A DNA stretch of 64,000 nt from assembly GCA_050506795.1 (NCBI GenBank), contig JBJHCF010000003.1:128001-192000 (forward strand), read 5' to 3'. The position numbers were made by a program, and so were the translations under genes. The notes beneath the pieces were generated by a model. The model did no database searches and had not been told where the DNA came from. It worked only from the letters and a program-made list of their open reading frames with translations. Positions 6,994 to 33,061 of the stretch are shown in pieces (position 1 is the first letter of the stretch; the number at the start of each line of letters is the position of its first letter). The DNA comes from Opitutia bacterium. Lineage in GTDB: Bacteria > Verrucomicrobiota > Verrucomicrobiia > Opitutales > T3Sed10-336.

Positions 6994-9900
6994 AAACGTC
7001 GATACAGAACGAGATGATTCTCGCCTCGGCCGGATCGGGCAAGACGTACCGTCTGACCAATCGCTACCTTCGGCTGATGGCCCTGGGGGCGGAGCCGGAG
7101 CGTATCGTGGCGTTGACCTTCACCCGCAAGGCGGCGGGCGAGTTCTTCGATGAGATTCTGAAAAAACTGGCTTGGGCGGCGGAAGATACTTCCGCAGGGG
7201 CCGCTCTGGCGGAAGGCATTGGTTGTCCCGATCTCGATTCCGTCGCGGCAACGGAAATGTTGGCGACCCTGGTCGATCGAATGCACCTGTTGGAACTGGG
7301 AACCCTTGACGGTTTTTTCTATCGCATCGTGCGCAACTTTCCTTTCGAACTGGGACTTTCGGCCCCTCCGGAACTGCTTGATGAAAACGCCATGCGGACG
7401 GAGAAGCGCCGGGTGTTCCGGCATGTGTTCAGAACTCCGGGGCAAAGCGGAGAAGCCGCCCGGCGCGAGTTCATCGAAGCGTTCAAACAGGCCACCTGGG
7501 GGTCCGAGGAAAAACGGTTGTCTTCCAAACTCGACCGGTTTGTCGACGAGCATCATGAGGTTTACCTGGCGGCGCCCGAAAGAGAATTGTGGGGCGTGGA
7601 ACGCCGCATCTGGCCCGAGGGTTGCCGTTGGCTTGGCTCCCGTGTCGATCACCGGAAGGCGCTGGCCGTGCTGGAGGAAAGTTTCCGCAGGAGGGAACTT
7701 ACCGAGGGACAGCGCAAGGCCTGGGGCAAGCTTTTCGCCGCGGCGGAGGAATGGGAGCCGGGGTCACCCTGGAGGGCCGAGTTCAAAACCCCGGTGGGCA
7801 ACGCGCTCAAGGTTTGGCCCGATCTGGAAGCCGGGTCGGCTGAGTTTATGATCGGACGCAAGGCGCTGCCGCTCGACCGGGCCGAATGTGCCGCGTTGAG
7901 GGATCTGGTGCGTTGCCTCTTTGCGTCGGAACTGGAGAAAAAACTGCAGATCACCCGCGGCCTTTATGAGATCCTGCGCGGGTTTGAATCCGCTTATGCG
8001 GACCTGGTTCGGTCGGGGGGGCGTTTGACCTTCGGGGATATCCTGATACTGCTCGCCGGCGGCGGAGACCAGGGACAGCGCCCCCGATTGAGTCAGGATG
8101 ACCACGGTCCGGGCCGGCTGGCGATCAATTACCGGATCGATGGACACTACGATCACTGGCTGCTGGACGAGTTTCAGGATACCAGCTTCGTGCAGTGGCG
8201 CGCGTTGAGCGACCTGATCGATGAAGTCGTGCAGGATGCGGAAGGGCGACGCAGCTTTTTCTACGTGGGTGACGTCAAGCAGGCGATCTTCGCCTGGCGG
8301 GAGGGGGATTCCCGTTTGTTCCGTGAGATCTATGATCATTACAACTGGGCGGGGTCCGGCGCCGGTATTGTCGAGCAGCGCATGAGCGAATCGTGGCGCT
8401 CCTCGCCGGCGGTGATCGAAAGCGTCAACCGGGTTTTCGGAGATCATGAGATTCTCAAGACGCTGTTTCCCTCCGACGCGGTTGTCCGATGGACCGATGG
8501 TTGGGATTCGCATCGGGCGCGTCACGAAGAACGTCAGGGCTGCGTTCGATTTTTTCAGGCCCCCGACCGGGAGAGTCGTCACGCCGCGGTATTGGCCCTC
8601 CTGCGGGAAGTCGATCCGCTGGCGCGGGGCCTTTCCTGTGCCATCCTGGTGCAGAAAAACGATCAGGCCGCGGAAATTCTGCAGTACCTTCGGGCGCATG
8701 GTGAATTTCCCGTGGCCGGTGAAATGGATGTTCGACCGGGAACTGACAATCCGTTGGGCATGGCGCTGATATCCCTTTTTAAATGGGCGGCGTATCCGGG
8801 TGATACCTACGCCTGGGAGCATATTCGCATGACCCCGATCGGATCGGTAATTGAGGCGAGGCAATCTTCCGCCGGGTGGGATTCGGTGGCGCGCGGGATC
8901 CTGGAGTCGATTCACCGGGACGGTTTCGCCGTCACGGCTGCCGAATGGATCGCGCAGTTGGAGAGGATAAACGGCATGGACCCGTTCAACCGGGAACGGG
9001 GAGAAATCATCGTGACCGCAGCGCGAGCCTTCGACGCTTTGGGAAGGCGATCGGTGGCCGACTTTGTTGAGTTTCTCAGCGATTACTCCCGGCACGAAAC
9101 CGGCTCGGATGGCACGGTGCGGGTAATGACGATTCACAAATCCAAGGGCTTGGGATTCGATGTGGTGATCCTCCCCGAATTGCAGGGGGAGCGGCTGGAT
9201 GCCCGCCGGCGAAAGCTGGCCGTGAGCCGAACGGCGGCGCGCGAAGTGGAGTGGGTATTGGATCCTCCCGCCAGGCAGATCGTGGAGCACGATGCCGTCT
9301 TGGCGGCCCACGACCGGACGGCGGGTGCCGACGCCTGTTACGAACGCTTTTGCCAGCTGTACGTCGCTATGACGCGCGCGAAACGGGCGACGTATCTGGT
9401 GGCGGAGCCTCTGAAGAAAAGCGCTTCCTCGGCGAACTTCGTCCGGTGGCTGAACACCGCGTTGGCAAAAGGCGATCCGGTAAACGTTTCCTGTGGAGAT
9501 ACCGTCCTGGAATTGCTCTACGAGACGGGAAATCCCGAGTGGTACGGCGAATTCACGCCGCCGCCGGAGGCAGTGATCGCGGAAAGCGGACGGCGGGAGG
9601 CGCGGGAATACGGGGTGCGCGAGCGACGTCGCCGTGGAACCCCGTCGCGGGCCAAACCGCGGGCGGTTGGCGCGGAAGGGTTGTTTTCGCTGGACTCCCA
9701 TCGAAGCCTGGAATTCGGCAGCCGGGTCCACGAGATCTTCTCCCGTGTTGGCTGGATTGAATCCGGTACCGTGGAGGAGTTGGAGCGCATGCGGAACGTC
9801 GAGGCCGATTCGCCTTTGATGGTCCGGGCCTTTGATGAGGTGCTTGCCTGTTTGCGGGATCCGGCGGTTCGCGCCGCTTTGACCCGGCCTGAAGGCGAGG

Positions 9901-19166: not shown

Positions 19167-22100
19167 GTTTCCAAGCCACTTGGGTGCGATAGCGACAACC
19201 GGGCCAAGGCGGCATGGGACCGGCTCAAGAGGTTTCCAAGCCACTTGGGTGCGATAGCGACGGATTGCCGGAAGGGCTGGCGGCCATGTATTATGGAGTT
19301 TCCAAGCCACTTGGGTGCGATAGCGACGCTTCCGGGACTTGCTGCTGCTGATCCGTCTCTTGAGTTTCCAAGCCACTTGGGTGCGATAGCGACGGGAAAC
19401 GCATACCTGTTTAACTTTTCGTGCGAGGATGTTTCCAAGCCACTTGGGTGCGATAGCGACGATGCAGCAGTCGATCCCCGGGATAGGGCAATACGTGTTT
19501 CCAAGCCACTTGGGTGCGATAGCGACCGAACGCGGGCTATTTGCAGACGCTGAAGCGTACGGGTTTCCAAGCCACTTGGGTGCGATAGCGACGGCCGGCC
19601 GCTACTCACCAAAGCCGGAGCGCTGAAAAGTTTCCAAGCCACTTGGGTGCGATAGCGACCGTTTTCCCTTCGCGCCGGGAGGGGCGGGTTTCACCGTTTC
19701 CAAGCCACTTGGGTGCGATAGCGACACGACCCCGGCCGCGTTCCGCGTCAATGCGGTAAACGTTTCCAAGCCACTTGGGTGCGATAGCGACCCTGGAGTA
19801 CAAGCGTGCTGCCTGGCATCCCGCAACGTTTCCAAGCCACTTGGGTGCGATAGCGACGCAGGAACTGCGTCAGGCGGTGGCGGCGGATCCGTTGTTTCCA
19901 AGCCACTTGGGTGCGATAGCGACACCGACGAGGATTTCGTGCGCTGGGATGGCGCGATCGTTTCCAAGCCACTTGGGTGCGATAGCGACGCAACTTTCGT
20001 AGTCAGGGCGGGTTGGGTCTTGGAGCGTTTCCAAGCCACTTGGGTGCGATAGCGACGATTCGGGGTTGTTCCTGCTCTTTCTGGAGAGTTCGGGTTTCCA
20101 AGCCACTTGGGTGCGATAGCGACGGCCTCGGAAGGGAAAGGATGGATGAGAATTAGGGAGGTTTCCAAGCCACTTGGGTGCGATAGCGACGATTCGGGGT
20201 TGTTCCTGCTCTTTCTGGAGAGTTCGGGTTTCCAAGCCACTTGGGTGCGATAGCGACTTACCGACGATTTCGACCATGACGACGGCACGTTCACGTTTCC
20301 AAGCCACTTGGGTGCGATAGCGACGGTCCAAAAGGTGGTTTCTTTGCGCTGGCGGGCCAAGTTTCCAAGCCACTTGGGTGCGATAGCGACGGCGCCATCG
20401 CCGAGTGGATGAATGTCCAGAGCGAAGTTTCCAAGCCACTTGGGTGCGATAGCGACCCGGAACATTTGATGGGGCGCGATCCGACATTGAGATGTTTCCA
20501 AGCCACTTGGGTGCGATAGCGACGAGCCATACAAGGGAACCCTGGCACTGACGGTTCTAGTTTCCAAGCCACTTGGGTGCGATAGCGACCCGGCCGTCGC
20601 CGCGATGGACCAGGCGCTCACCAACAGTTTCCAAGCCACTTGGGTGCGATAGCGACGGAGAGCGTCGGCGGCCCGGTAGTAGAGATCCGTATGTTTCCAA
20701 GCCACTTGGGTGCGATAGCGACGACGAGCAGCCCATCACCCCGCAAAACCTTTCCGAGGTTTCCAAGCCACTTGGGTGCGATAGCGACAGGTTGTCCACC
20801 ACCGGCGCGTCGCCGCCCGTCGGGGTTTCCAAGCCACTTGGGTGCGATAGCGACTTCCCGCTCCATGGCGGGCGGATCGGCGAGAGTTGCAGTTTCCAAG
20901 CCACTTGGGTGCGATAGCGACCGTGCTGATGCCCACCAAAACGGCCAGGATCTGGTGTTTCCAAGCCACTTGGGTGCGATAGCGACCACGCACCTCCCTC
21001 AGTGTTTTGTAGGCGCTCCTGGGTTTCCAAGCCACTTGGGTGCGATAGCGACATCCCGAGGTAAATGAGATTGCGCAGTTCTGAAGGAGTTTCCAAGCCA
21101 CTTGGGTGCGATAGCGACCCCACCTGGTCATTCGGCCGCGAGGGCAACCAGATAAGTTTCCAAGCCACTTGGGTGCGATAGCGACCTGAGAGCGGCGAGG
21201 ACGAAGAGGAAGAGGATTACAGTTTCCAAGCCACTTGGGTGCGATAGCGACGGAGATTCGGTGAGATCGTAATTCAAACTCTCCAATGTTTCCAAGCCAC
21301 TTGGGTGCGATAGCGACATCGAGGAGAGGCGACGGACGGACGGGCAATACACGTTTCCAAGCCACTTGGGTGCGATAGCGACCCTGGCCGCCGATCTCCG
21401 CGAGGCGATCGATCACCGTTTCCAAGCCACTTGGGTGCGATAGCGACCAAGTGAGAGAGGATGCGGCTCTGCGTCAACAAATGTTTCCAAGCCACTTGGG
21501 TGCGATAGCGACGACCGGTTTCGGGGTGCCCTGGTTGCCGGTGATCGGGGTTTCCAAGCCACTTGGGTGCGATAGCGACGAGCCTTCCGTTGCTCACGAA
21601 GGATCGGCTCAATCTGTTTCCAAGCCACTTGGGTGCGATAGCGACGGCAAACTCGCTCGGATTCGCGCCGCCATTGCCGGAGTTTCCAAGCCACTTGGGT
21701 GCGATAGCGACGCGGTCGCGGGCGTGTTTGCGGGTGAGTTGTTCGAGTTTCCAAGCCACTTGGGTGCGATAGCGACGGTGAAAAACCCGCCTCTAAACGG
21801 GCAGGAACGCAAGTTTCCAAGCCACTTGGGTGCGATAGCGACCCGCGCAACCCTCGGCGTCATCATCCCAGACCTTCATCGTTTCCAAGCCACTTGGGTG
21901 CGATAGCGACTCGGAACGATGCTCGCCCTGACCCGAACCGTTTCGCGTTTCCAAGCCACTTGGGTGCGATAGCGACCCTGGGAGGTTTTGCGGAGTTTTG
22001 AGTGGCTGTCTGTTTCCAAGCCACTTGGGTGCGATAGCGACTACGGGTCCGGGGATCGGTCTGGGCGATTACCTGGGTTTCCAAGCCACTTGGGTGCGAT

Positions 22101-22306
22101 AGCGACTCAAACAGGCGGAGCCGGTCGACTCTCCCGGATCGGTGTTTCCAAGCCACTTGGGTGCGATAGCGACGCGCGAAACGTCGGGGACATGCGGGGA
22201 GGCGGGAGGAGTTTCCAAGCCACTTGGGTGCGATAGCGACTTCGGCAGCTTGGCTCGGGATCGAATTGTTTCTTTTGTTTCCAAGCCACTTGGGTGCGAT
22301 AGCGAC
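19167..22306 (-). CRISPR. CRISPR array, 48 repeats / 47 spacers; repeat GTCGCTATCGCACCCAAGTGGCTTGGAAAC (30 nt), spacers about 35-38 nt
   Basis: Repeats counted by hand from 19167 to 22277 (start positions); orientation from the 3' GAAAC end and the leader next to cas2. Confidence 0.98.
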
Positions 22307-22452: not shown

Positions 22453-22713
22453 TCAGAGGATATTGGAAACATGTCCTTCGCCCGTGCCAAGTTCTTCTTT
22501 TTCGAGCATCTTTTCGTTATCGACCTTAAAGAAGACGATGTAGCTACTCGGATGGCGTACTTTTTTCAGGAGATGCTTGATTTCAACATATTGAGCTTCA
22601 GTCACGTTTCCTTCGAAAACGGAACGTTGATTCCACATCAAATGCTTTTTCAGTGACTTGTGGAGCTTCGCGCAGTTTTTCCGGTCCGTGTCGTAAACAA
22701 TAATCAGATACAT
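22453..22713 (-). CDS. cas2: CRISPR-associated endonuclease Cas2
   Basis: YLIIVYD, WNQRSVFEG motifs; 86 aa; next to cas1 and the array. Confidence 0.95.
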   Translation of the reverse strand: MYLIIVYDTDRKNCAKLHKSLKKHLMWNQRSVFEGNVTEAQYVEIKHLLKKVRHPSSYIVFFKVDNEKMLEKEELGTGEGHVSNIL

Positions 22714-22752: not shown

Positions 22753-23799
22753 TCAGTAGTTGATTCGGTGAGGTTCGTAGGGCGCGTCTTCCAAAAGGTG
22801 CTTGATCAGCTTGTAGCAGTCGAGCCGGAGCAATTGTCGGTAGGAAACATGACGATTCAGCCGCGGGTGCGCGACAGTCGTCTTCAAGAGTTCGTCCCAG
22901 CGTTCAAGGATTTTCTTCCGCGAGGCATCCTTGAGAAGGACTCCGTTTGAGTGGGCGTGAAAATCGGAGGCGCCGATCTCCTGTCGGTCCCATAGGCGGA
23001 ATAGAAGGCGGTCGACCAGCATGGGTTTGAAGGGTTCGACCAAATCGAGGGCGAGGGAGAAGCGACGAGACTGGGGGGAATGGAGATAGCTGATCCCCGG
23101 GTAAAGGGCGGTCCGGTAGAGTTCGGACACCATGGCGGTGTAGAGAAGAGAATTCAGAAACGAGATGAGGGCGTTGAGGGGGTTGTCGGGCGGGTGGTAC
23201 TTGCGAGTGAATTTTTGGCCGGAGTCCGGGAGCCAATGTCTCCAGCATCCGTAGTAGTAGCGGCGTGCGGAGCCTTCCAATCCCATTTGACCGTCGGTAT
23301 CCGGGGTCTGGTCGATCTGGTTCCGGAGGGCTTCGCTTTTCGATATTTCGGCGGCGACATCGGCGCCGCGTCGCTGATAGTACCGGAGATTCGACAGGAG
23401 ATTCCGAAAGGTTGCGTGCAGAATCTTTCCGGAAATATGAAGGCGCCGTTGCGGATCGCGGAACGCCTCCCCCTGGCGGATCACAAGGTCGCCGGAGAGT
23501 TGTTCTCCGTGGGGCAGAAACGTCCCGGAATGGTGACCGTAGTAATTAAAGAAGTGAACGGGAATTTTCTTTTGGGCGAGAAAGTTGAGCAGCTTCGAAT
23601 TTAGGGAGGTTTCGCCGAAAACGTAAATCGCATCGACGCTTTCGACCGGGAGGTGAACGCGTTTGTCGTGAGCGCCGTCTTCGAGTATGGGCGAATCTTC
23701 GTCGGAAAAAACGCTGTCTTCGGACAGGGTAACCAGTTCGAAGGTCAGACTGTTGTCTTTACGCCGCAGCCGTCCGGATCGTGTCAGGTAAAGGTTCAT
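22753..23799 (-). CDS. cas1: CRISPR-associated endonuclease Cas1 (type I-B-like)
   Basis: SGRLRRKDNSL, HFFNYYG, MGLEG..RRYYY, PPDNPLNALISFLNSLLY, ISYLH, SLALDLVEPFKP. Confidence 0.97.
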   Translation of the reverse strand: MNLYLTRSGRLRRKDNSLTFELVTLSEDSVFSDEDSPILEDGAHDKRVHLPVESVDAIYVFGETSLNSKLLNFLAQKKIPVHFFNYYGHHSGTFLPHGEQLSGDLVIRQGEAFRDPQRRLHISGKILHATFRNLLSNLRYYQRRGADVAAEISKSEALRNQIDQTPDTDGQMGLEGSARRYYYGCWRHWLPDSGQKFTRKYHPPDNPLNALISFLNSLLYTAMVSELYRTALYPGISYLHSPQSRRFSLALDLVEPFKPMLVDRLLFRLWDRQEIGASDFHAHSNGVLLKDASRKKILERWDELLKTTVAHPRLNRHVSYRQLLRLDCYKLIKHLLEDAPYEPHRINY

Positions 23800-23911: not shown

Positions 23912-24418
23912 TCAGGAAAAACAAAATTCGAAGAAGGCGCAGCTCTTGCAGTAAGGAAGTTTCACGACCGATGGAGGGCGGTCCCGGGAGATGACTTGCC
24001 GGGCTTCGGCCAGGGCGTCCTCTACCTCCCGATGGAACGCGCCGTTCCACTCGATCTCCTTCGTTCGTTTTTGTTTGGGATAATGAATGCGGGCGCCGCG
24101 GATGTCGATGCCGTGGTCACGCATCCACACCATGTAGTACTTGACCTGAAGCTCGTCGGCGTAAGCCGGCGTTTTACCTTTCTTGGTCTCGTGAAGTATC
24201 CCTTGTTTGAACTCCGCCCAATCGATCACGCCGACATCGCCGAGGGGAATGTCCTTTTCCTTCCGGTCGAAAGTCGAGTTTTGGATGTGCTTCCCGATCT
24301 TCACGTTGACGTGAGCGTTTTCCGGCTTGATGCCGTGTGTGTGCAGCCAGAGTTTGCGGCGGCAGATTTTCAGGTAGGTCAGCGCCGTGGCGGTAACGGG
24401 AGCGGGCGGGCTTGACAT
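23912..24418 (-). CDS. cas4: CRISPR-associated exonuclease Cas4
   Basis: CRRKLWL, IG.HI, HETKK, QVKYY, C-terminal CKSCAFFEFC Fe-S cysteines; start placed at MSSPPAP. Confidence 0.93.
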   Translation of the reverse strand: MSSPPAPVTATALTYLKICRRKLWLHTHGIKPENAHVNVKIGKHIQNSTFDRKEKDIPLGDVGVIDWAEFKQGILHETKKGKTPAYADELQVKYYMVWMRDHGIDIRGARIHYPKQKRTKEIEWNGAFHREVEDALAEARQVISRDRPPSVVKLPYCKSCAFFEFCFS

Positions 24419-24448
24419 GGCCATGTTTTTAGAGGAACCTGGCCATGC
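24412..24448 (+). promoter_or_regulatory. Putative phd-vapC promoter/operator overlapping the cas4 start codon
   Basis: TTGACA at 24412-24417; perfect palindrome ACATGGCCATGT at 24415-24426; second TGGCCATG at 24440-24447; the -10 element is weak. Confidence 0.55.
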
Positions 24449-24449
24449 G

Positions 24450-24785
24450 ATGCAAGTGAAAACCGCGGAGTTAAAAAACAACCTGAGCAAGTATCTGCGA
24501 CGAGTGCGGGAGACCGGGGAGTCGATAACCGTTTGCGACCGGGACAGGCCGGTGGCGGTTCTTTCGCCGTTGCCGGCGGAGCAAGTCGAGGTGGTGGAGA
24601 ATCGCGAATGGCTGAAGGAGCGGGAACGGATATTGAAGAAAGCGAAGCGGTTCGGCGTTCGCCTCACCATGCCCAAAAAGAAGCCGCGACCGATGCGGGA
24701 ACTCGGGATTTATCCGACGGTGGCGCCGGACGGGCGGACGGACATCAAGACGATCGACCTGGTGCGCGGCGGACGCGATTATTGA
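24450..24785 (+). CDS. Phd/YefM-family antitoxin
   Basis: MQVKTAELKNNLSKYLRRV.ETGESITVCDRDRPVAVLSP is a typical prevent-host-death N-terminus; upstream of a PIN gene. Confidence 0.88.
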   Translation: MQVKTAELKNNLSKYLRRVRETGESITVCDRDRPVAVLSPLPAEQVEVVENREWLKERERILKKAKRFGVRLTMPKKKPRPMRELGIYPTVAPDGRTDIKTIDLVRGGRDY

Positions 24786-24791
24786 GGAGCG

Positions 24792-25193
24792 ATGGTAACC
24801 TACTGGGACACGAGCGCGCTGCTCGCCTTGCTTTTCGAAGAAGTGCATTCCGCTCGGGCAAAGGCGGCCAACGACCGGACTGATTCCTTCCTTGCCTGGC
24901 GATGGATCGAAGTTGAGGCGCGCCTCGGGTGCGACCGACGAAACGCAAATCCGATCCAGCTGGATTTTCTCGACCGGTGGTTGAGCAACGCGGAATACGC
25001 AAATCTTCAGGAAGACGACTATCCCGTACTGATCGACCTCGGTCTCCGCCACAAACTCCGCGCTGCCGACGCCGGACACCTGCACTCCCTTCTCCAGGTC
25101 CGCCGCCTCTTTCCCGAGATCGCTTTTGTCTGCTTCGACGAAGCCCTGACCGCCGCCGCGAAGGCGGAAGGAGTTGCGGTTTGGGAGGGGTGA
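24792..25193 (+). CDS. vapC: PIN-domain (VapC-family) toxin
   Basis: YWDTSALL, E, LRAADAGHL, FVCFDEAL..AA..EG acidic PIN motifs; GAGGAG RBS. Confidence 0.88.
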   Translation: MVTYWDTSALLALLFEEVHSARAKAANDRTDSFLAWRWIEVEARLGCDRRNANPIQLDFLDRWLSNAEYANLQEDDYPVLIDLGLRHKLRAADAGHLHSLLQVRRLFPEIAFVCFDEALTAAAKAEGVAVWEG

Positions 25194-25207: not shown

Positions 25208-27562
25208 TTATATTACGATTCCTGGGCCTCCCACAGGCGTTTCAGAAAATTCCAAACCTCGATCAGCACTGTAAGGCTGGTCCGCCAACATAATTCGGTG
25301 TTCGGAACAGCGTGTGATCAATTGCTTGGCGCTCAGCATCCTGAAATGACCGTGCGAAATTGGAACCGTTAACATCCCGGCCTCAAGGTATCTTCCTTCG
25401 GCATGAAGCTCCAGGAATTCCTGGAAGAGAGATGATGGAAGAATTTCAGTTCCGTCGAAAAGGGCTTCGAACTGCTCAACGGCATCTTCGTCGGACTGGA
25501 ACGCGATCAGCCGCTTCGAACCACAAATGCTCTCGAACGCTTCAATACCATTTTCAATACACTCTTCGATTATTTGCCGTTCCGGAGCGTAGATTTCATC
25601 CAGCCATTCCGACACCGTTGCTTCATCCAAGATTTCCCCATCATGTTTTTTTAAGTGTTCGACCGTCCGATGAAGCAGAGCCTCCTGCCCATAAGGACGT
25701 CTCCAATCCACAGGTTCATTGAAAACGATGACAGGGCGGTGATCGTGTAACCGCCGGCGATTAACCCGCCCAAAACGCTGAAAGAGAGCTTCCAATGGGG
25801 CGGGTTCGGTGAACAGAACATCAAAGTCCACGTCCAGGCTTACCTCGACAACTTGCGTAGCTGCCACAATCAACCCCTTTCCGTCCTGAGAATTCGTGCA
25901 TTTTAAAACGTAATCCTCTTTTTCAAAGCGATCACGTGCGGTAAACCGGCTATGAAGCAGCAACACTTCCAGTTGATCCTCTGATTCGCGAAGCGCTGAA
26001 AAAACCTCTTGCGCCGTCTTAACCATATTGGCGACGACCAGAACTTTCATTCCTAGCCGGGCTTTTATCAGAATTTCTTGTATTGATGCCTCAGCCGTTA
26101 CTGGACCACTTATGACCGTCATGCGATGCCGCTTGAATTCTTCGAATAATGCAGGCGCTGCTTCCACTTTCGCGCATGGGGCTAGTGCCTCGGCGCAGCG
26201 TTCGTTGAGCCAAGTCGGCATGGTAGCCGACATGCAAAGGATCCGGCCCTGGCACTGCTCGCGTAGAGCTCGAAGCAGCCCGAGTATCAGGCCAAGGCGC
26301 TTCGGCTCGTAGCCATGAATTTCGTCGAGGATGAACCGGCCATGTCGCAGCATAAGCCATTGGGCTTCGTAACCGGGCAGCCGAAATGCCGCTCGCAGGA
26401 GCTGGTAAGGAGTGGCGACCATCACGGGGTTTGTGGCCAATTTCGAAAGCGAACGACTTTGCTTTGCCCGATGAGACGCTGTAAGAAAGTCCACACCCTG
26501 TTCGTCCAGGTCCCGATAAAGCGCAGCCGTGGCGCGACTGTGTAAAAGAGCGGTTTGTGCTTCGCCAAATTCGTATCTGTCACGAATTCGTTGATACATG
26601 GCATTGATGCTCGCTTGAAACGGAAGGACATAAAATAGTGATGGCGCACCCGCCGCCGTTTCCAGATTCCGTTTTGCCCAGAATAGAGCCGCTTCGGTCT
26701 TGCCACTTCCCGTCGGAGCTCGCAGGAGGACGTTTCCTTCGATTTCTCCACACTCGCGTTGGTGTTCAAACCAGTCGGTCCGTGTGCGCGCCAAGAATTC
26801 GATTCTCTCCAAATTTGGCTTGGAAAGCGTCTCGGCACCAGCACTGGCGAGACGGTCGGCTTCGAGGATTAGCCCGCGCAGGACTAGAAGCTGACGACGG
26901 AGACGGGGGTTACCGTTCCTGTTGCGAAAAGACGATTTCTGTTCTTTGAAAAGGCAATCGAAAATTCTCAAAGCCGCTTGGATCAGTTCAGGTGCTTTCT
27001 GAAAGAAACCAGCAAGCTCCTTTTGGCTGAAAGCTAAGCACGTCGCCGGAAGATCTCCGACAACGGCAGATCGAGCGGTGTCTGCCTCTTCCACCGTCCA
27101 CCGCCAAAGAGCGTCGATAATATCGTAGGAGATTTCCGAGCGCCATCTTTCATCTATAACGGATTCGGAAATCTCCGGTTGATCGGTTATGTAAGTTCGT
27201 TCGATAAAATCATGGTCGCGGTGATGGGAAACGACCGCCGCGGCCGCGAACTTGAACTCTTCGCTGTCCGGCTCAAACACCCAAGCTAAGAACGGCAGAG
27301 ACAAAACCTCATGGCGATATCCCCAAGGGGTCTTCGTCCGCAGTTGGCGCTGGAACCCGGGAGCCGCTTTCCCGAAATCATGAAACCAAACTGCCCAAGA
27401 GACGATTTGCCATAGTTGCGGGAGTTCGATCTCGTCCGCTAAAGCCGGTAATCGCTGGCGCAACTGCCCCAAGCGACGCATTACTTGCCGGGTATGTTCA
27501 GGTAGCGTCTCGCCGCCTGGCACAGGGCTTTTGGCGTAGAACCTTTCTGCCTCAATCGGCAT
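25208..27562 (-). CDS. cas3: CRISPR-associated helicase/nuclease Cas3 (HD + SF2 helicase)
   Basis: TLPEHT, HDFGKA, HEVLS, SHH, ADRLAS, APTGSGKTE, LDEIH, MSAT, HSRF, ATQVVEVSLDVDFD, QRFGRVNR. Confidence 0.97.
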   Translation of the reverse strand: MPIEAERFYAKSPVPGGETLPEHTRQVMRRLGQLRQRLPALADEIELPQLWQIVSWAVWFHDFGKAAPGFQRQLRTKTPWGYRHEVLSLPFLAWVFEPDSEEFKFAAAAVVSHHRDHDFIERTYITDQPEISESVIDERWRSEISYDIIDALWRWTVEEADTARSAVVGDLPATCLAFSQKELAGFFQKAPELIQAALRIFDCLFKEQKSSFRNRNGNPRLRRQLLVLRGLILEADRLASAGAETLSKPNLERIEFLARTRTDWFEHQRECGEIEGNVLLRAPTGSGKTEAALFWAKRNLETAAGAPSLFYVLPFQASINAMYQRIRDRYEFGEAQTALLHSRATAALYRDLDEQGVDFLTASHRAKQSRSLSKLATNPVMVATPYQLLRAAFRLPGYEAQWLMLRHGRFILDEIHGYEPKRLGLILGLLRALREQCQGRILCMSATMPTWLNERCAEALAPCAKVEAAPALFEEFKRHRMTVISGPVTAEASIQEILIKARLGMKVLVVANMVKTAQEVFSALRESEDQLEVLLLHSRFTARDRFEKEDYVLKCTNSQDGKGLIVAATQVVEVSLDVDFDVLFTEPAPLEALFQRFGRVNRRRLHDHRPVIVFNEPVDWRRPYGQEALLHRTVEHLKKHDGEILDEATVSEWLDEIYAPERQIIEECIENGIEAFESICGSKRLIAFQSDEDAVEQFEALFDGTEILPSSLFQEFLELHAEGRYLEAGMLTVPISHGHFRMLSAKQLITRCSEHRIMLADQPYSADRGLEFSETPVGGPGIVI

Positions 27563-28277
27563 TGGAGAAATGGTGAAACTCAATCAAGTGAGGTTCCCCG
27601 GGCGACAGCGCCGCATCCGCCCAGAGTTCCAGCGATCCATCAAGGCAAACAGCGCGATTTGGTCCGGCCAATAGAAATTGGGAGACGGCGATGTACAAGC
27701 CCCACGATCTATTTTCCCGATTCGTAGGGTCCATCACCCTTGGCATTCGGAGCATTTCACCGGCGGGGAGAACCTCGGCCATCTCAGGAGAAAACAATCC
27801 GGGACCCAAGCGACCATGGTTCGCCTTTTCCAGCGTAACCTTCGTGACCGTTCTGATCGAAGCCAGATCCTGAGATCGTCCCAAAACCGGCGGATAGCGA
27901 GGGGAACGAAAAGCATTTATCCAGAAATCCAGAGATTCACCCGCCAAATACAACGTCAATCGGGGAAAGATCAACCATTCGCGCGGCAGGATATTGCTGT
28001 TCCCCTCGAGGTTGAATTCTTTCGATGGACCCCGGGTCGATTTGTTTGGCTCCAAAAACCAAATTTTTTCGATATCGTCGATCCGCTCACCTTCGCATTC
28101 AAAGCGATAAGCGAATGAAATACTGGCCGGGTCCGGAGGGATTCCGGCAGCACAGGTCAACAGACCGTAAATTGTCGAAGGAGGCGGCATCGGGAATGTT
28201 GGCTGCCGCCCAATCAGAAAATGCGGAAAGCGAAACGAGGCGGTAGGGCCGCTAATTTCAATGCGCAAGGCATTCAT
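27552..28277 (-). CDS. cas5: CRISPR-associated protein Cas5 (Cas5t-like)
   Basis: TASFRFP..PTFPMPPPSTIYGLL, LGRSQDLA. Confidence 0.93.
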   Translation of the reverse strand: MNALRIEISGPTASFRFPHFLIGRQPTFPMPPPSTIYGLLTCAAGIPPDPASISFAYRFECEGERIDDIEKIWFLEPNKSTRGPSKEFNLEGNSNILPREWLIFPRLTLYLAGESLDFWINAFRSPRYPPVLGRSQDLASIRTVTKVTLEKANHGRLGPGLFSPEMAEVLPAGEMLRMPRVMDPTNRENRSWGLYIAVSQFLLAGPNRAVCLDGSLELWADAALSPGEPHLIEFHHFSNAD

Positions 28278-28288
28278 ACTCTCTTAAA

Positions 28289-29362
28289 TCAATTGAACCA
28301 ATCCGGGTTTTTATCGACTAAATCGGCGAGACGCTCAAAGGCATGCCGCGGATGGCAGAGTTCCAGTCCATGGGGGAAACTGCTCTGAAGTTTTTCGAGG
28401 TTCGATTTGAGTTTCAGACGGCCTTCCTCGCAATATCCGGTCGTCCATCCGACGAATACGGGAGAAAGAGTTTGATCTCCCCACACTTCCCCGGCTTCCC
28501 GGAGTGAATCGAGCGCGGGGGTAATCTCTCCGTTTTCCATTGCCTGAACGCTGTATTGGAAAGGGTTGTTCGCACCCTTGAACGCGGCGGCAATGACGAT
28601 GACCGGCGATACGTCCGTATAATGCAATCCCAGTTTGGCACCACCAGACACATGCGGCACAGCTCTGAGCAGCATTCCGACACGGTTTTGCCTTGTTTTG
28701 ATAGGAAGCCGGAATGCCTTATTCGGTTCGTCGTTTTCAAGGTTCTTTTCTTCGCAGAGCTTCCTTCGTTCCTTATCCAGATTCAGATGCCCGGTCTGGT
28801 TAAGGTAGGAAAACGAGCCGGAGGTCGAAAGGTCGAGGGAAAACAATCCTTTTAGCGCGGTCTTGTAGAACTGATGCTCGTGCGGCACCGCATCGCCTTC
28901 ATGCCGGCTCATGGTTCCGAAGTCAGAGGTGATTCCATCGGTCATTCCGACTAAAGTTCCCACGCGAAAGGGAGAAACACGCGTTATGGTGACTTTCGCC
29001 TCAACCGGGGTTGCGCCCACCATCGTTGCCCGGCTTTCAGCTGCCTCGACCTTCTTTCCTGGCGCTCGCATATAACCGAAAAGGTCGTCGTCACTATAAC
29101 GGATAGGATTGGCATCGGTGTAGGCTACCTTTGCCTCTCGATAAATCGGGGCTCGTTCCCATTCGTCCGGGTAGAGCCTCTCGACGGTCTCGCGAAGCCA
29201 CCGTCGATAAGCTTGGGCGGAAACATAGGGATATTGTTTGCGACCGACACGAAGAAACTTGGTTGCGACAGCATTCTCCATTGTCGTGCCAGACGCTGCG
29301 CCAGCATTGTTCAATGCGCTCCCAGGGGCGTCGATAATTTGAATTCCGGTTATATGGGCCAT
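28289..29362 (-). CDS. cas7: CRISPR-associated protein Cas7 (Cst2/DevR family)
   Basis: SALNNAG, YPYVSAQAYRRWLR, NPIRYSDDDLFGYMRA, RVSPF, GGAK..HYTDVSP. Confidence 0.93.
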   Translation of the reverse strand: MAHITGIQIIDAPGSALNNAGAASGTTMENAVATKFLRVGRKQYPYVSAQAYRRWLRETVERLYPDEWERAPIYREAKVAYTDANPIRYSDDDLFGYMRAPGKKVEAAESRATMVGATPVEAKVTITRVSPFRVGTLVGMTDGITSDFGTMSRHEGDAVPHEHQFYKTALKGLFSLDLSTSGSFSYLNQTGHLNLDKERRKLCEEKNLENDEPNKAFRLPIKTRQNRVGMLLRAVPHVSGGAKLGLHYTDVSPVIVIAAAFKGANNPFQYSVQAMENGEITPALDSLREAGEVWGDQTLSPVFVGWTTGYCEEGRLKLKSNLEKLQSSFPHGLELCHPRHAFERLADLVDKNPDWFN

Positions 29363-29411: not shown

Positions 29412-30896
29412 TCAACGAAGCTCATCGATTGTTTCAATTGCAATTTCGTCCGGGGCGACAACCTCATCGTCTTCCTCACGTCTGAGCGCGGGCCAATTCT
29501 TGAGTTGCTCAAGGCAGCGTATGCGGATCATATCACGCGCTAGGAAAAATCCTCCGTGAGGAACGTTTTCCTCGTCCTCGAAGATCTCCGTAAAATCGTC
29601 CAGGGTGAGGAGAAGTTTGGGTTCGTTCTTCAACAGCTTCAGCGCGGTCCGAACAAGAATTGCGCGGAACGCCGTATAAGAATTGGTGGACTGAGTCCGT
29701 CCCATGATCTGGCTGAAGAGCTTCTTATCGTTTGTTTTCTGGATGATGCCAGAAAGTTCATCGGCCAGGAGTCGTATTTTCTCAATTTGTTCTTTTTTCA
29801 TAAGGATTACAATTCGCAGAAAGACGGAAAGTAGATCCCAGAGCTGAATAGGAGTCGCATCCAGATTCTTTCGGTACCCCGCCAGGTTTTCGGCATAACT
29901 TTGAAAATAGCGTCGAAGGAAGGCTTGGACATTGGCGGGAAGGCTGTAGAGATCATCGTATAAGGAGTTGTTGGAAACCCGATTTTTCTCGTTGGTCAAA
30001 ACATCGTCGGAAGACTCCGTTTTACCCTTCCACCAAAACGCATTGACAAAGGTCAGCCACGACTGCCGAAGGTCTGCCATGTTCACTCGGATTAGGAATC
30101 GTGAGACCATGGGCTGCAGCGAATAAATATCGATGGCGCAACCCTGACTGCTGTTCGACAGAAAGTAGAGAATTACGCCGGGGCGTTTAGTCGAACGCGA
30201 CAAATCCCGTGTGAGTTTGGATTCCGCTGCGAAAATATCATCCAATCGTTGGGCTACACGAGTTTTTTGACCCTTCCTGTCGGGTAACGCTGTTCCATGA
30301 AGTCGAGCTTTCGCGAGATCGGTTTGTTGCTGTTCATACCAACCGAACAAGAAGGAAAGCAGGAGATCTTTGCTTTCCATGGCGACAACCGGCATTCGTC
30401 CGCTTACCACGGGAAGTACTTGAGGAATCGCGAGCAGACAGCCATAGGCGATTCCTGAAAGTGGAATCTCCGCACGGCCGCTAGGATAGAAATTCACCTG
30501 GTTTCGCCCCTGAACCATTGGAAATTGATCCCTCGCCGCCCGGATGACCGCAGGAAACTCCTGGAAGAAAGCACAACGATCAACCGTCGTGTCTTCGATG
30601 TCCGACAGACTGTTCACGAACCCAAACGCTTCCTCAATCGCCTTCTTTCGTTTTTCCCCTTTGAATGCCGGATTATCGAAGCTGTTTGTGGTAAAGAGGA
30701 TTCCAGTTGGCTTCTTCAACAAGCCATCGAGATAATCCTCTTTGATGCGGTTCATCGTTTTTACCCAATCAGTCCAAGTCACCTCGCAAGGATTTCCCAC
30801 CTCACAAGCCAAAACGACTGAGGCCACGCCCGTGTCGATTAGGGGCTCGCCAGTCCACCGGAGGAACTTAGAGCGGTTGGTTCTGGTATCGGTCAT
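29412..30896 (-). CDS. cas8: Cascade large subunit Cas8 (Cst1, Cas8a1/b1-like)
   Basis: N-terminal WTGEPLIDTG, FPMVQG..NFYP, YFLSN motifs; lies directly upstream of cas7-cas5-cas3. Confidence 0.8.
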   Translation of the reverse strand: MTDTRTNRSKFLRWTGEPLIDTGVASVVLACEVGNPCEVTWTDWVKTMNRIKEDYLDGLLKKPTGILFTTNSFDNPAFKGEKRKKAIEEAFGFVNSLSDIEDTTVDRCAFFQEFPAVIRAARDQFPMVQGRNQVNFYPSGRAEIPLSGIAYGCLLAIPQVLPVVSGRMPVVAMESKDLLLSFLFGWYEQQQTDLAKARLHGTALPDRKGQKTRVAQRLDDIFAAESKLTRDLSRSTKRPGVILYFLSNSSQGCAIDIYSLQPMVSRFLIRVNMADLRQSWLTFVNAFWWKGKTESSDDVLTNEKNRVSNNSLYDDLYSLPANVQAFLRRYFQSYAENLAGYRKNLDATPIQLWDLLSVFLRIVILMKKEQIEKIRLLADELSGIIQKTNDKKLFSQIMGRTQSTNSYTAFRAILVRTALKLLKNEPKLLLTLDDFTEIFEDEENVPHGGFFLARDMIRIRCLEQLKNWPALRREEDDEVVAPDEIAIETIDELR

Positions 30897-30897
30897 G

Positions 30898-30988
30898 GTT
30901 TGGCGTTGTCCGCATTGACGGGAAAGGAGCTTAGTTCTTTTTTAATGAGAAACATGTTTTCAAGCCACTTTAAGGTACGATAGATTAC
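30898..30988 (-). ncRNA. Putative crRNA-like regulatory RNA (mini-CRISPR: degenerate repeat, 36-nt spacer, highly degenerate second repeat)
   Basis: 30956-30988 minus strand GTAATCTATCGTACCTTAAAGTGGCTTGAAAAC versus array repeat GTCGCTATCGCACCCAAGTGGCTTGGAAAC; spacer 30920-30955; GTC...AAAC remnant 30898-30919; spacer seed matches 31209-31223. Confidence 0.75.
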
Positions 30989-31173
30989 TATGGCTCCTTT
31001 CCCGTCAGATCGCGGCAAATCTTTCGTGCAAGGCGTTCTGGTATCTCGTTATGGCGAGGGACAGCTTGCCATTCTCCTGTCTTCGTATTCTCCCAGAGGC
31101 TGTGTCTTGACCCTTCACGTCGGAGGCGACATCCATGGCGACGAAGAAACCGGAGAAGTAGCGCTCTCTTCAT
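30988..31173 (-). CDS. hicA: HicA-family mRNA interferase toxin
   Basis: 61 aa basic protein, GC.L.REGSRHS.W.N..TG...VPRH.EI...LARKICRDL; conserved His retained. Confidence 0.9.
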   Translation of the reverse strand: MKRALLLRFLRRHGCRLRREGSRHSLWENTKTGEWQAVPRHNEIPERLARKICRDLTGKEP

Positions 31174-31195
31174 CCTGACTTGAAAACCTTTCCGT

Positions 31196-31236
31196 TTGAA
31201 AAATCCAATTTAATGAGTAACATTGGATCTTTTCAA
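31196..31236 (-). promoter_or_regulatory. Putative sigma70 promoter for hicA and downstream cas genes, containing the mini-CRISPR target and an inverted repeat
   Basis: Minus strand TTGAAA (31231-31236), 18 nt, TAAATT (31207-31212); CCA PAM at 31224-31226; protospacer 31209-31223. Confidence 0.6.
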
Positions 31237-31289
31237 TCGAACGCAACCAGACAAGTCAAGCACTTCTTGGGGTTAAGTCACCGTTATTA

Positions 31290-31502
31290 TCAGGAGATGG
31301 CTTCGATAACCACGGACTCGGTCTTCGCTCTGCCGATCTCCGTGTTTCTTCTTTCTTCGAAGATTAAGTCGATCGCCGCCTTCAGATCTTCGATACACTC
31401 TTCGCGTGTCTTTCCCATCCCGTTGGCAGCGGGCACTTCGGCACACGTGGCTGTCCACCAATCGCCTTCCTCGCGTAATATGGCTGTGAAAGTTTGGATC
31501 AT
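31290..31502 (-). CDS. hicB: Short HicB-family antitoxin without DNA-binding domain
   Basis: FTAILREEGDWWTATCAEVPAANGMGKTREECIEDLKAAIDLI matches the HicB partial RNase H fold; GGAG RBS. Confidence 0.88.
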   Translation of the reverse strand: MIQTFTAILREEGDWWTATCAEVPAANGMGKTREECIEDLKAAIDLIFEERRNTEIGRAKTESVVIEAIS

Positions 31503-31556
31503 AGTTCTCCATTACAATGGCTGATTCATTCGCGGGAAGCAAATGGATTTCCTTCA

Positions 31557-31808
31557 TCAACCCCAATCCTGTGCGCGGTTCAATTTTTTGAGGATCCGAT
31601 CAATGCGAGGATCGGACGGGTCGGGTTCTGGAACGGATAGCCGGCCAACCCATTTCCTTACGAAGCTGCCGTCGAATTCGCCTTCCTCCACAAAAGCCCG
31701 AAGATCCTTCTCGACTACTGCGGAAAGGGAAATTCCTTCATTCCGTGCCATCAATCGGGCTTTGCGAAGCACCTCCGGATCGATTCTAACGGTGAGATTC
31801 TTTTTCAT
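31557..31808 (-). CDS. Ribbon-helix-helix antitoxin-like protein (DUF6364/CopG-like), no adjacent cognate toxin
   Basis: MKKNLTVRIDPEVLRKARLMARNEGISLSAVVE is an RHH signature. Confidence 0.7.
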   Translation of the reverse strand: MKKNLTVRIDPEVLRKARLMARNEGISLSAVVEKDLRAFVEEGEFDGSFVRKWVGRLSVPEPDPSDPRIDRILKKLNRAQDWG

Positions 31809-31847
31809 TGGAGTAAGAATCAAGTGCATTTGCCTTCCTGAACATTT

Positions 31848-32714
31848 TCATCCCGCGTCCACCGCTCCGAAGCCCATGGAGTTCATTTCGCCGAGGCCGG
31901 CGGACCAGATGAGGCGCTGGAGTGGGATTGGGGCGGTGACTTTGACCGGTGCGGCCCAACTGCGGACGGGGATATTTTTGATGTGAAAGAGCCGGGTTCG
32001 GGCCTTGCCCGGATCGGCGAGTTCCACCTGGACGTCCTGGCGGGCGGCCCAGGCTTTGGTTTCCGTCGGAGTCGCGCCGTTGAGACCGGCCCAGCGGGCT
32101 GCAATGTCGGGACGGCCGGTTTCGTCAGTGAAACGAAGCCATTTGTGGAAGAGGTTTTGACAGATCAGTTCCGCGCAGTCGTGGCCTTCGGCCGGATTGT
32201 CGGGCAGGGCGTAGTGCTTGGCGCCGGTTTCCCGGTTTTTCCAGCTCGTCACGATCGACGCTTCTCGGACGGGTTGCCAGAACATTGTTTCCCGGAAGGC
32301 GGGTTGGGGGATGACTATGGCGGATTTGATCAGGAAGTCGGAGGCGGCCAATCGAAGATTTCCGGCGGCGAGGAGTCCTTCACTGACCGCCGATAACAAT
32401 TCCGGCCAGGGGGAAAACAGGCGAAACGTCGCTTCGCCTTCGATGAGGAGCCCAGGGCGGGTTGTTTCGCCGTTTTCGTTGTCAGGCAAGTGAGATCCTT
32501 TTCCGCCGCGATTGACCGTCATGCGACGGCACCGGAGCGGCGAAAATCCGAATAGTTTGATCCGGTCTTTATGCTGTTCGCCGTGGTGCAAATCGGCGGC
32601 GAACTCCGGCTGAACAGTTTCAAGGGATTGATACAATGCGGCCGAAAGAAACGGATAATAGGAAAACGGCAGGTTCGCCGGTGTGGTAGGGGCTATGGTA
32701 ACAGCGAATTGCAT
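31848..32714 (-). CDS. cas6: CRISPR-associated endoribonuclease Cas6
   Basis: LPFSY, LHHG...KLFGFSPL, C-terminal Gly-rich GLGEMNSMGFG loop. Confidence 0.92.
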   Translation of the reverse strand: MQFAVTIAPTTPANLPFSYYPFLSAALYQSLETVQPEFAADLHHGEQHKDRIKLFGFSPLRCRRMTVNRGGKGSHLPDNENGETTRPGLLIEGEATFRLFSPWPELLSAVSEGLLAAGNLRLAASDFLIKSAIVIPQPAFRETMFWQPVREASIVTSWKNRETGAKHYALPDNPAEGHDCAELICQNLFHKWLRFTDETGRPDIAARWAGLNGATPTETKAWAARQDVQVELADPGKARTRLFHIKNIPVRSWAAPVKVTAPIPLQRLIWSAGLGEMNSMGFGAVDAG

Positions 32715-33061
32715 GCGGAGATGACGCCTGGTGGAGTTAGCAATTGACGGGCTTAATCGAGGAAGTGCGAGGTGGCCGGAATCGAAACGACAAGATAGCC
32801 TCAACCAAGTCAAACGATTTCGAACGCCATCGGTTCCTGCCGACATCATTGCGCCGGACCGAGGCCCACCGAATCGTTTTTGTGGATGGGGGTTGAACTC
32901 TTGGGTGGGGCCGCTATCGAGGGGTTCGGCGTAGAGTGAACCTGTGTCACGGCGGACACAGGTGGATCTTTTCATTTGGGTGCCTTGAAAATAGTGAGAG
33001 CCGGATGCTCGCGTTCCCGGTGGTGATTTTTTTGGTCGCGGACCACGAAAGCGCGGGTCGG

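Follow-up and report, generated by a model that had tools for sequence, protein, structure and literature searches.

The CreTA module of the Haloarcula hispanica CRISPR-Cas system of type I-B (CRISPR, short palindromic repeats that are clustered and regularly interspaced) is reportedly the subject of Li et al. 2021. This module lies between cas6 and cas8, and its CreA represses both PcreT and Pcas8 (Liu et al., bioRxiv 10.1101/2023.03.10.532045). CrePA of the Acinetobacter baylyi type I-F system has the protein toxin CreP (bioRxiv 10.1101/2024.01.05.574328; PMC12737573). Mini-arrays with spacers partly complementary to the promoters of cas8 or of toxin-antitoxin (TA) cargo are reported by Shmakov et al. 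(PMC10120712), in whose account the cargo slot is a gene-shuffling hot spot and type I-B loci show an enrichment of TA genes. In CRISIS, Cascade and a crRNA-like RNA (crRNA, CRISPR RNA; crlRNA, crRNA-like RNA) restrain potentially self-harming cargo, and type I-B cases are mentioned (bioRxiv 10.1101/2024.12.27.630466). A further link is known from Leptotrichia, where HicAB is activated by Cas13a (PMC13448076). What is said here of cited sources refers to their accessible parts. The segment compared with these systems lies in the interval from cas6 to cas8 in the type I-B system of an Opitutia bacterium (contig JBJHCF010000003.1, positions 128,001 to 192,000); this stretch of 64,000 nucleotides (nt) is called the window. 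Judged from its sequence, the segment is fairly probably a CreA/CreR-type regulatory mini-CRISPR of a Cas8b/Cst1 system, with promoter and target, hicA, guide, and cas8-cas7-cas5-cas3 in one unit.

The module of the window shares with CreTA the type I-B setting, the position between cas6 and cas8, a guide derived from a degenerate repeat, and a short promoter complementarity next to a protospacer-adjacent motif (PAM), which is putative in the window. Joint repression of the toxin and the cas8 operon, which is inferred for the window, is also common to both. In contrast, the CreTA toxin is a small RNA, while that of the window would be the HicA protein with a protein antitoxin of its own. Two promoters diverge from one target in CreTA, whereas a single promoter in the window would read toxin, guide, and cas8 in one direction. 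The host is archaeal for CreTA, and bacterial with a Cst1-type Cas8b for the window. Like CrePA, the window has a protein toxin gene downstream of a CreA-type target inside the cas locus, a CC-flanked target, and a mismatch at a sixth-multiple position. The CrePA toxin is a KilAC-domain cell-division inhibitor of a type I-F system and has no protein antitoxin, which differs from the RNase-family HicA of a type I-B system that is split from its HicB partner.

The mini-arrays of Shmakov et al. resemble the window in the partial complementarity of guide and promoter, the TA cargo, and the shuffled slot. Their cargo cases are of type I-D and have the mini-array upstream of cargo and target, whereas the window has the target between antitoxin and toxin and the guide downstream of the toxin. 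Cascade-restrained self-harming cargo, which again is inferred for the window, and a mismatch at position 6 are shared with CRISIS. The cargo of CRISIS comprises multi-gene defence systems, mostly of type I-C, and HicA or HicB is not found in its main text. In Leptotrichia a HicAB module is likewise functionally tied to CRISPR-Cas, but the tie is type VI activation by Cas13a and not transcriptional repression by Cascade and a guide. The main texts on CreTA, CrePA, TA-cargo mini-arrays, and CRISIS do not contain the word HicA, supplements lying outside this check. A literature search, also outside supplements, did not find HicA under Cascade or crlRNA control, and the sole HicAB-CRISPR link found in the accessible texts is the Cas13a one. 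Joint repression of toxin and cas8 by one guide, a protein toxin under CreA, TA cargo under mini-arrays, and crlRNA-supervised defence are already published. HicA as the toxin and the wiring of the unit are new relative to these circuits.

The degenerate repeat that follows the hicA stop codon, psiR1, is identical to the array repeat at 25 of the 30 repeat positions and has three inserted bases. It is the top gapped match outside the array on both strands of the window, with a score of 23 against 16 for the next one. Its 8-nt handle is TTGAAAAC, starts at about 30963 on the minus strand, and departs from that of the repeat in one letter. Both the repeat and its nearly intact handle were claimed in a first-pass annotation made from the letters of the window, and all of the coordinates and letters given there were correct on re-check. 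The guide that follows psiR1 has the most frequent spacer length of the array, in which spacers have 35-38 nt and 24 of the 47 have 36 nt.

Guide nt 1-15 agree with the target in 14 of 15 letters. The sole mismatch is at position 6 and CCA stands in front of the match, all as first annotated. When up to two mismatches are allowed, the 15 nt are found in the window only at the guide and at the target, with 0.07 matches expected and two matches in none of 100 shuffles. The 4.9-Mb genome has 12 other sites with the 10-nt seed (positions 1-5 and 7-11), and of all these the target alone has a CCN PAM, and its match is the longest. A type I-B system with CCA as its consensus PAM is known from C. difficile (PMC10732046, in its accessible part). 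Upstream of hicA, the mini-array, and cas8 there is a single promoter-like site, and the target sits in it. The -10 box of this site ends 33 nt before the hicA ATG, and the frame is open without another start codon.

A perfect 15-bp inverted repeat surrounds psiR1 and guide nt 1-25 and occupies the place of a second repeat that had been claimed. The stem folds at -39.1 kcal/mol (z = -4.8), is equalled by none of 200 shuffles, and is retained when 316 nt are folded. It is presumably a stem for processing or presentation of the guide. Its arms have two copies only in the genome, and their interpretation as a mobile or repeated element is rejected for lack of further copies. The claimed second repeat, a GTC...AAAC remnant called psiR2, does not hold up, since random 22-mers of the window align equally well in 5.5% of cases. 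Solitary repeat units are described for crRNA-like RNAs (10.1101/2024.12.27.630466, accessible text). A search of Rfam gives nothing near a gathering score, and the phage and plasmid collections contain no copies of 30890-31300. Two further candidates are within chance as estimated from the region size, namely the 10-nt direct repeat TTGAAAA(C/G)AT and a stretch of 12 nt in which psiR1 is complementary to the ribosome-binding region of hicA. The latter is also missing in the 316-nt fold.

The same layout is found in an independent locus. An alignment of Cas7 homologues gave 80 type I-B loci from species genomes, and the 30-nt repeat class with ...ATCGCAC... occurs in two of them only, L003 and L031. 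L003 is a contig of an Ignavibacteria metagenome-assembled genome (MAG). Its Cas8 is 39% identical to that of the window by tblastn and was not found in 80 relatives of the L003 genome. Directly before cas8, L003 has a mini-array composed of a psiR1, a 34-nt spacer, and a psiR2. Its psiR1 retains the 3' part of the repeat (...ATAGAATTGAAAG) and ends at 6409, and its psiR2 (6444-6470) retains the 5' part. The best match of the L003 spacer on both strands of the 17-kb locus is CCT|ACATAATTGGATG at 6095, 315 nt upstream. Guide and target agree in 11 of 13 letters, and the mismatches are confined to positions 6 and 12. The target flank is thus CCT in L003 and CCA in the window. An open reading frame (ORF) of 59 codons (6190-6369) with a GGAGG ribosome-binding site lies between target and mini-array, which is the slot of hicA in the window. 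The 59-amino-acid (aa) product has no significant family and no look-alike in the Atlas. The stem around the L003 mini-array has 13 nt with 92% complementarity (z = -2.4) and is equalled by three of 200 shuffles. A 15-mer direct repeat in L003 is within chance, again as estimated from the region size. The gap between cas6 and cas8 in L003 also carries a regulator with helix-turn-helix (HTH), WYL, and WCX domains (4923-5924).

The two loci share one architecture, consisting of a CCN-flanked target, a small gene, a mini-array, and cas8. The first-pass annotation had proposed to look for co-varying spacer and promoter pairs in homologous cas8 loci, and in L003 a pair of spacer and target is found whose letters are unrelated to those of the window. 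A shared layout with unrelated guide and target letters is what selection on the pairing predicts. Each of the three mismatches seen in the two loci is at a sixth position, for which the chance is about 2/15 x 1/78 = 0.002 by the present authors' own arithmetic. Mismatches at positions 6 and 12 are in print for crlRNA targets (10.1101/2024.12.27.630466, accessible text). The start of the match at guide nt 1, the CCN flank, the sixth-position mismatch, and the recurrence in L003 point to Cascade-guided repression of the hicA promoter, which is likely on these signatures. This part of the first-pass reading is supported at the level of sequence; joint control of toxin and cas8 by one guide, as proposed there, is already published for CreTA.

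HicA of the window looks intact by its sequence, with all 15 invariant columns of a 13-sequence alignment kept (His24 and 14 others). By family it would be an RNase toxin. No solved structure is found for it by sequence at E<=0.01. Homologues of HicA are present in 42 of the 300 other genomes searched in the order. The synteny set comprises 30 hicA-homologue loci, of which 29 are from this search and one is L071, a type I-B locus of a Firmicutes MAG. A gene like ORF70, the small frame on the cas6 side of hicA in the window, is located directly upstream on the same strand in 21 of the 30 loci, and the other nine have no ORF70-like match. An overlap of 4 nt is found in 16 of the 21 pairs and one of 1 nt in two; the remaining three have large negative values caused by the start-codon rule. 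In the window the pair is split by a 116-nt insert that carries the promoter-like site and the target. This gap is apparently the derived state, because none of the 21 homologous pairs shows one. The L071 pair (6979-7382) is 53% and 61% identical to that of the window, forms an operon with a 4-nt overlap, and is located just after cas3 on the opposite strand. Its presence hints that this hicB-like/hicA pair is recurrently associated with type I-B loci.

ORF70 has no DNA-binding domain, and its only profile match is to DUF7387 (E 0.024, below cut-off). The L071 homologue of ORF70 matches UPF0150 with 24.3 bits against a cut-off of 27.3, and also HicB_lk, both below cut-off. A homologue with 81% identity is named HicB family by JGI. 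A complex predictor gives ORF70 with HicA a score of 0.78, compared with 0.01 for the best control, and the interface covers His24. Among solved complexes, 116 of 157 attain this mark; among mismatched pairs, two of 215 do. The three runs show 100% contact agreement, and the partners have a predicted local distance difference test (pLDDT) value of at least 87. ORF70 is hence predicted to bind HicA, and the pass may show likeness only, because HicAB complexes have already been solved. Synteny and the predicted complex support ORF70 as a putative HicB-type antitoxin. The first-pass annotation had expected that release of HicA would lead to addiction or abortive infection. The hicA gene does follow the targeted promoter, but it is probably no orphan, since the HicB-like ORF70 adjoins; guide and Cascade would thus not be the sole antitoxin. 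Release of HicA need not kill the cell, because ORF70, with its predicted binding to HicA, sits just upstream of the promoter.

In the proposed circuit, a single promoter would transcribe hicA, the guide, and cas8-cas7-cas5-cas3 together. Cas6, produced from its own upstream unit, would cleave psiR1 and leave the 8-nt handle, and the 3' end of the guide RNA would come from the 15-bp stem or from trimming, and not from a second repeat. Cascade loaded with this guide would then bind the CCA-flanked promoter site and block RNA polymerase without cutting, which gives negative feedback. Cleavage by Cas3 would not follow, because 15 paired bases are too few to license it. Such a non-cutting block of a promoter matches the established behaviour of CreA/CreR (bioRxiv 10.1101/2023.03.10.532045, accessible text). 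Loss of Cascade, its titration by ordinary crRNAs, or its inhibition by an anti-CRISPR would raise HicA, guide, and Cas proteins together. ORF70 would buffer leakage but, being placed outside the repressed unit, would not be co-induced. An arrest of growth, in the form of addiction or abortive infection, is plausible and would depend on stoichiometry. A role of HicA as the toxic arm is possible, nearly to the point of even balance.

A more far-reaching reading is that a type II toxin has been rewired as a CRISPR-guarded one, which is tentative and somewhat unlikely. It holds that hicA was cut from an overlapping hicB by the 116-nt insert with its Cascade-targeted promoter. HicA would then be made only together with the guide and the Cascade genes, the antitoxin would be controlled separately, and the guide would be freed from a long stem without a second repeat. 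Were this so, HicA would be a two-key sensor of Cascade integrity, with the protein antitoxin and the RNA-guided Cascade as the keys, and every induction of the CRISPR effector would be tied to a pulse of RNase-driven dormancy. If the proposed circuit works, classical protein TA pairs could be dismantled and the toxin placed under RNA-guided Cascade control. CRISPR guarding of the CreTA/CrePA type would then reach the HicA RNases, a very common family, and the Cst1-type I-B systems of bacteria. Since one transcription unit would carry toxin, guide, and Cascade genes, the guide would repress its own synthesis and the levels of toxin and effector would be locked together. This one-unit geometry would be a testable link of CRISPR induction with dormancy and with the sensing of anti-CRISPRs. 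The stem that surrounds the guide in both loci suggests a way of processing crRNA-like RNAs in which a second repeat is not needed. The module is compact at about 350 bp and could serve in kill-switch designs like those built from CreTA.

Several results weigh against the regulatory mini-CRISPR. The first concern the PAM, which was to be deduced by mapping the 47 array spacers, as the first-pass annotation had suggested. The own genome contains no protospacer (best 26/28), and the INPHARED phage collection gives two marginal matches only, with E 0.3-0.9. One marginal match only is found in the plasmid collection, and 300 genomes of the order give partial matches (best 31/37) with inconsistent flanks. 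Exact 26-mers from three of the 47 spacers have no match in IMG/VR. No usable protospacer is thus available, and CCN is neither borne out nor contradicted. The array spacers of L003 likewise match nothing in phages or in their own genome. A second group of results concerns the RNA and its promoter. Among listed RNA sequencing runs, none contains this DNA. A second degenerate repeat with the 3'-handle part is unsupported in the window, which leaves the 3' processing unexplained, and is present in L003. The psiR1 unit folds weakly by itself. The hexamers flank the target as annotated, and the hicA promoter is called by a single consensus scan, whose own control shows it to be weak evidence: the site is one of three hits in 2.5 kb with 0.8 expected. 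No sigma-70-type promoter is found near the L003 target by consensus scan. The comparative support comes from one locus, L003, and seven loci of the same Cas8 clade (L082-L085, L087, L088, and L089) have cas6 abutting cas8 and, by eye, neither cargo nor mini-array. In addition, a derepressed HicA may be neutralised by the predicted binding of ORF70, and the regulation may come from a protein that has the palindrome at the target as its operator.

The explanation that survives best beside the proposed circuit is pure autoregulation of the cas genes. It holds that the guide acts as a CreR only and throttles the cas8 operon, and that the hicB-like/hicA pair is a type II TA passenger that shares the promoter without any CRISPR guarding. 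The adjoining ORF70 with its predicted binding across the invariant His24 agrees with this, and so does the L071 pair, which lies elsewhere in its locus. TA genes are also common cargo of CRISPR loci (PMC10120712, accessible part), and relatives with near-identical cas6 and cas8 carry a shorter segment instead. The latter is seen in soda- and salt-lake metagenome contigs from four runs, in which cas8 and cas6 are covered at ~85-97% identity and 30973-31577 is uncovered. One contig in each of the runs X2 and X4, with cas8 and cas6 ~90% identical, has 889 nt (30740-31628) exchanged for 409 other letters, which bridge 30739 to 31629. This replacement leaves too little room for ORF70 and hicA, and therefore fits the cargo-shuffling hot spot of Shmakov et al. 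A Cas8 with 89% identity (P0002) is far more diverged in its first ~55 residues than in the rest. The replaced segment and the diverged N-terminus of Cas8 together mark a recombination break inside cas8. Autoregulation without guarding is nonetheless unlikely, as the insert with promoter and target splits the pair exactly at the toxin, and a passive passenger would be expected to remain a tight operon. In L003, too, a small gene occupies the corresponding slot.

A promoter operated by a protein, as in ordinary TA systems, is quite improbable. The palindrome would here be the operator of ORF90, the ribbon-helix-helix frame beside cas6, or of a HicB complex, and the guide match would be secondary. 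The palindrome is imperfect and centred on the target, and may serve as an operator, for example of ORF90. This frame is above the cut-offs for both DUF6364 and the HicB C-terminal family, and in the relatives the part of it nearest to cas6 is covered beside that gene. Such an operator accounts neither for the PAM and the repeat-like handle nor for the mismatch at a sixth position and the parallel in L003. ORF70 has no domain with which to bind DNA, and an operator is compatible with Cascade-guided repression and not exclusive of it. Least probable of all is a functionless relic, namely a decayed array fragment whose 15-nt match is a pair of direct repeats left by insertion of a hicA cassette: two 15-mers, 268 nt from each other, do form direct repeats around hicA, the segment lies in the recombination hot spot described above, and psiR2 is at chance level, but the match starts exactly at guide nt 1, the preceding 3 nt differ (CCA as PAM, AAC in the handle), the mismatch is at position 6, L003 repeats the nt-1 start, the difference of PAM and handle, and the sixth-position mismatches with other letters, and shuffles fold far more weakly than the stem around the guide.

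The system of the window belongs to type I-B of the CRISPR-Cas systems, with the signature genes cas8b, cas7 (Cst2), cas5b, cas3, cas6b, and cas4-1-2 and an array present. Every gene of the locus is encoded on the window's minus strand, and their families were assigned by NCBIfam/Pfam profiles and PADLOC. On this strand the order is cas6b, ORF90, ORF70, the 116-nt gap, hicA, a 91-nt stretch, cas8b/Cst1, cas7, cas5, cas3, cas4, cas1, cas2, and the array (Table 1). The scores for TIGR01908, TIGR02585, TIGR01895, and TIGR03641 exceed their cut-offs. Cas8 of the window was not found in the 60 relatives of the same order that were searched, and it has few homologues anywhere; for these reasons the locus looks horizontally acquired.

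Table 1. Positions in the window of the putative regulatory module and of the type I-B locus around it.
Feature	Position	Strand	Remarks
psiR1, degenerate repeat	30956..30988	minus	core AAGTGGCTTG intact, handle 7/8
spacer-like guide, 36 nt	30920..30955	minus	nt 1-15 pair with target
psiR2, claimed second repeat remnant	30898..30919	minus	as repeat, not above chance
target	31209..31226	minus	protospacer 31223-31209, CCA PAM 31226-31224
promoter-like site	31207..31236	minus	-35 TTGAAA (31236-31231), 18 nt, -10 TAAATT (31212-31207); consensus scan
imperfect palindrome around target	31190..31241	.	20-nt arms, 75% complementary, 12 nt apart; core TTGAAAAGATCCAAT ... ATTGGATTTTTCAA
5' arm of perfect 15-bp stem	30993..31007	minus	within last codons of hicA
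3' arm of perfect 15-bp stem	30916..30930	minus	guide nt 26-36 plus 4 nt
hicA, 61 aa	30988..31173	minus	PF07927 34.8 bits, cut-off 27; invariant residues including His24
ORF70, putative HicB N-domain-like antitoxin, outside repressed unit	31290..31502	minus	homologue name, synteny, predicted complex
ORF90, ribbon-helix-helix (DUF6364 / HicB C-terminal type)	31557..31829	minus	Pfam, both above cut-offs
cas6b	31848..32975	minus	NCBIfam/Pfam; PADLOC Cas6b 1.8e-31
cas8b, Cst1 type, first gene past mini-array	29412..30896	minus	TIGR01908 31.2 bits, cut-off 19.4; PADLOC Cas8b 6e-78
cas7, Cst2/DevR type (type I-B)	28289..29362	minus	TIGR02585 160.6 bits, cut-off 72.75
cas5	27552-28277	minus	NCBIfam/Pfam
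cas3	25208-27583	minus	NCBIfam/Pfam
cas4	23912-24676	minus	NCBIfam/Pfam
cas1	22753-23799	minus	NCBIfam/Pfam
cas2	22453-22713	minus	NCBIfam/Pfam
CRISPR array	19167..22306	minus	48 identical 30-nt repeats, 47 spacers; leader at cas2 side

A few minor features accompany the locus. The spacers 34 and 32 from the leader (20057-20093 and 20191-20227) are identical 37-mers with one spacer between them. Between cas3 and cas4, an ORF of 204 aa (24471-25085) has no Pfam or NCBIfam match and overlaps the cas4 frame of 254 aa in the N-terminal extension of the latter. In another genome of the same family, the array L117 (G006:C19:3189-3803) reaches the contig end, and cas7 and cas8 are not found in that assembly with the proteins of the window as queries. 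The repeat of this array is one base off that of the window. Far from the locus, the window contains a tandem repeat (2713-3012) with a period of 123 nt, 2.4 copies, and a 70% match, which is probably a repeated protein domain.

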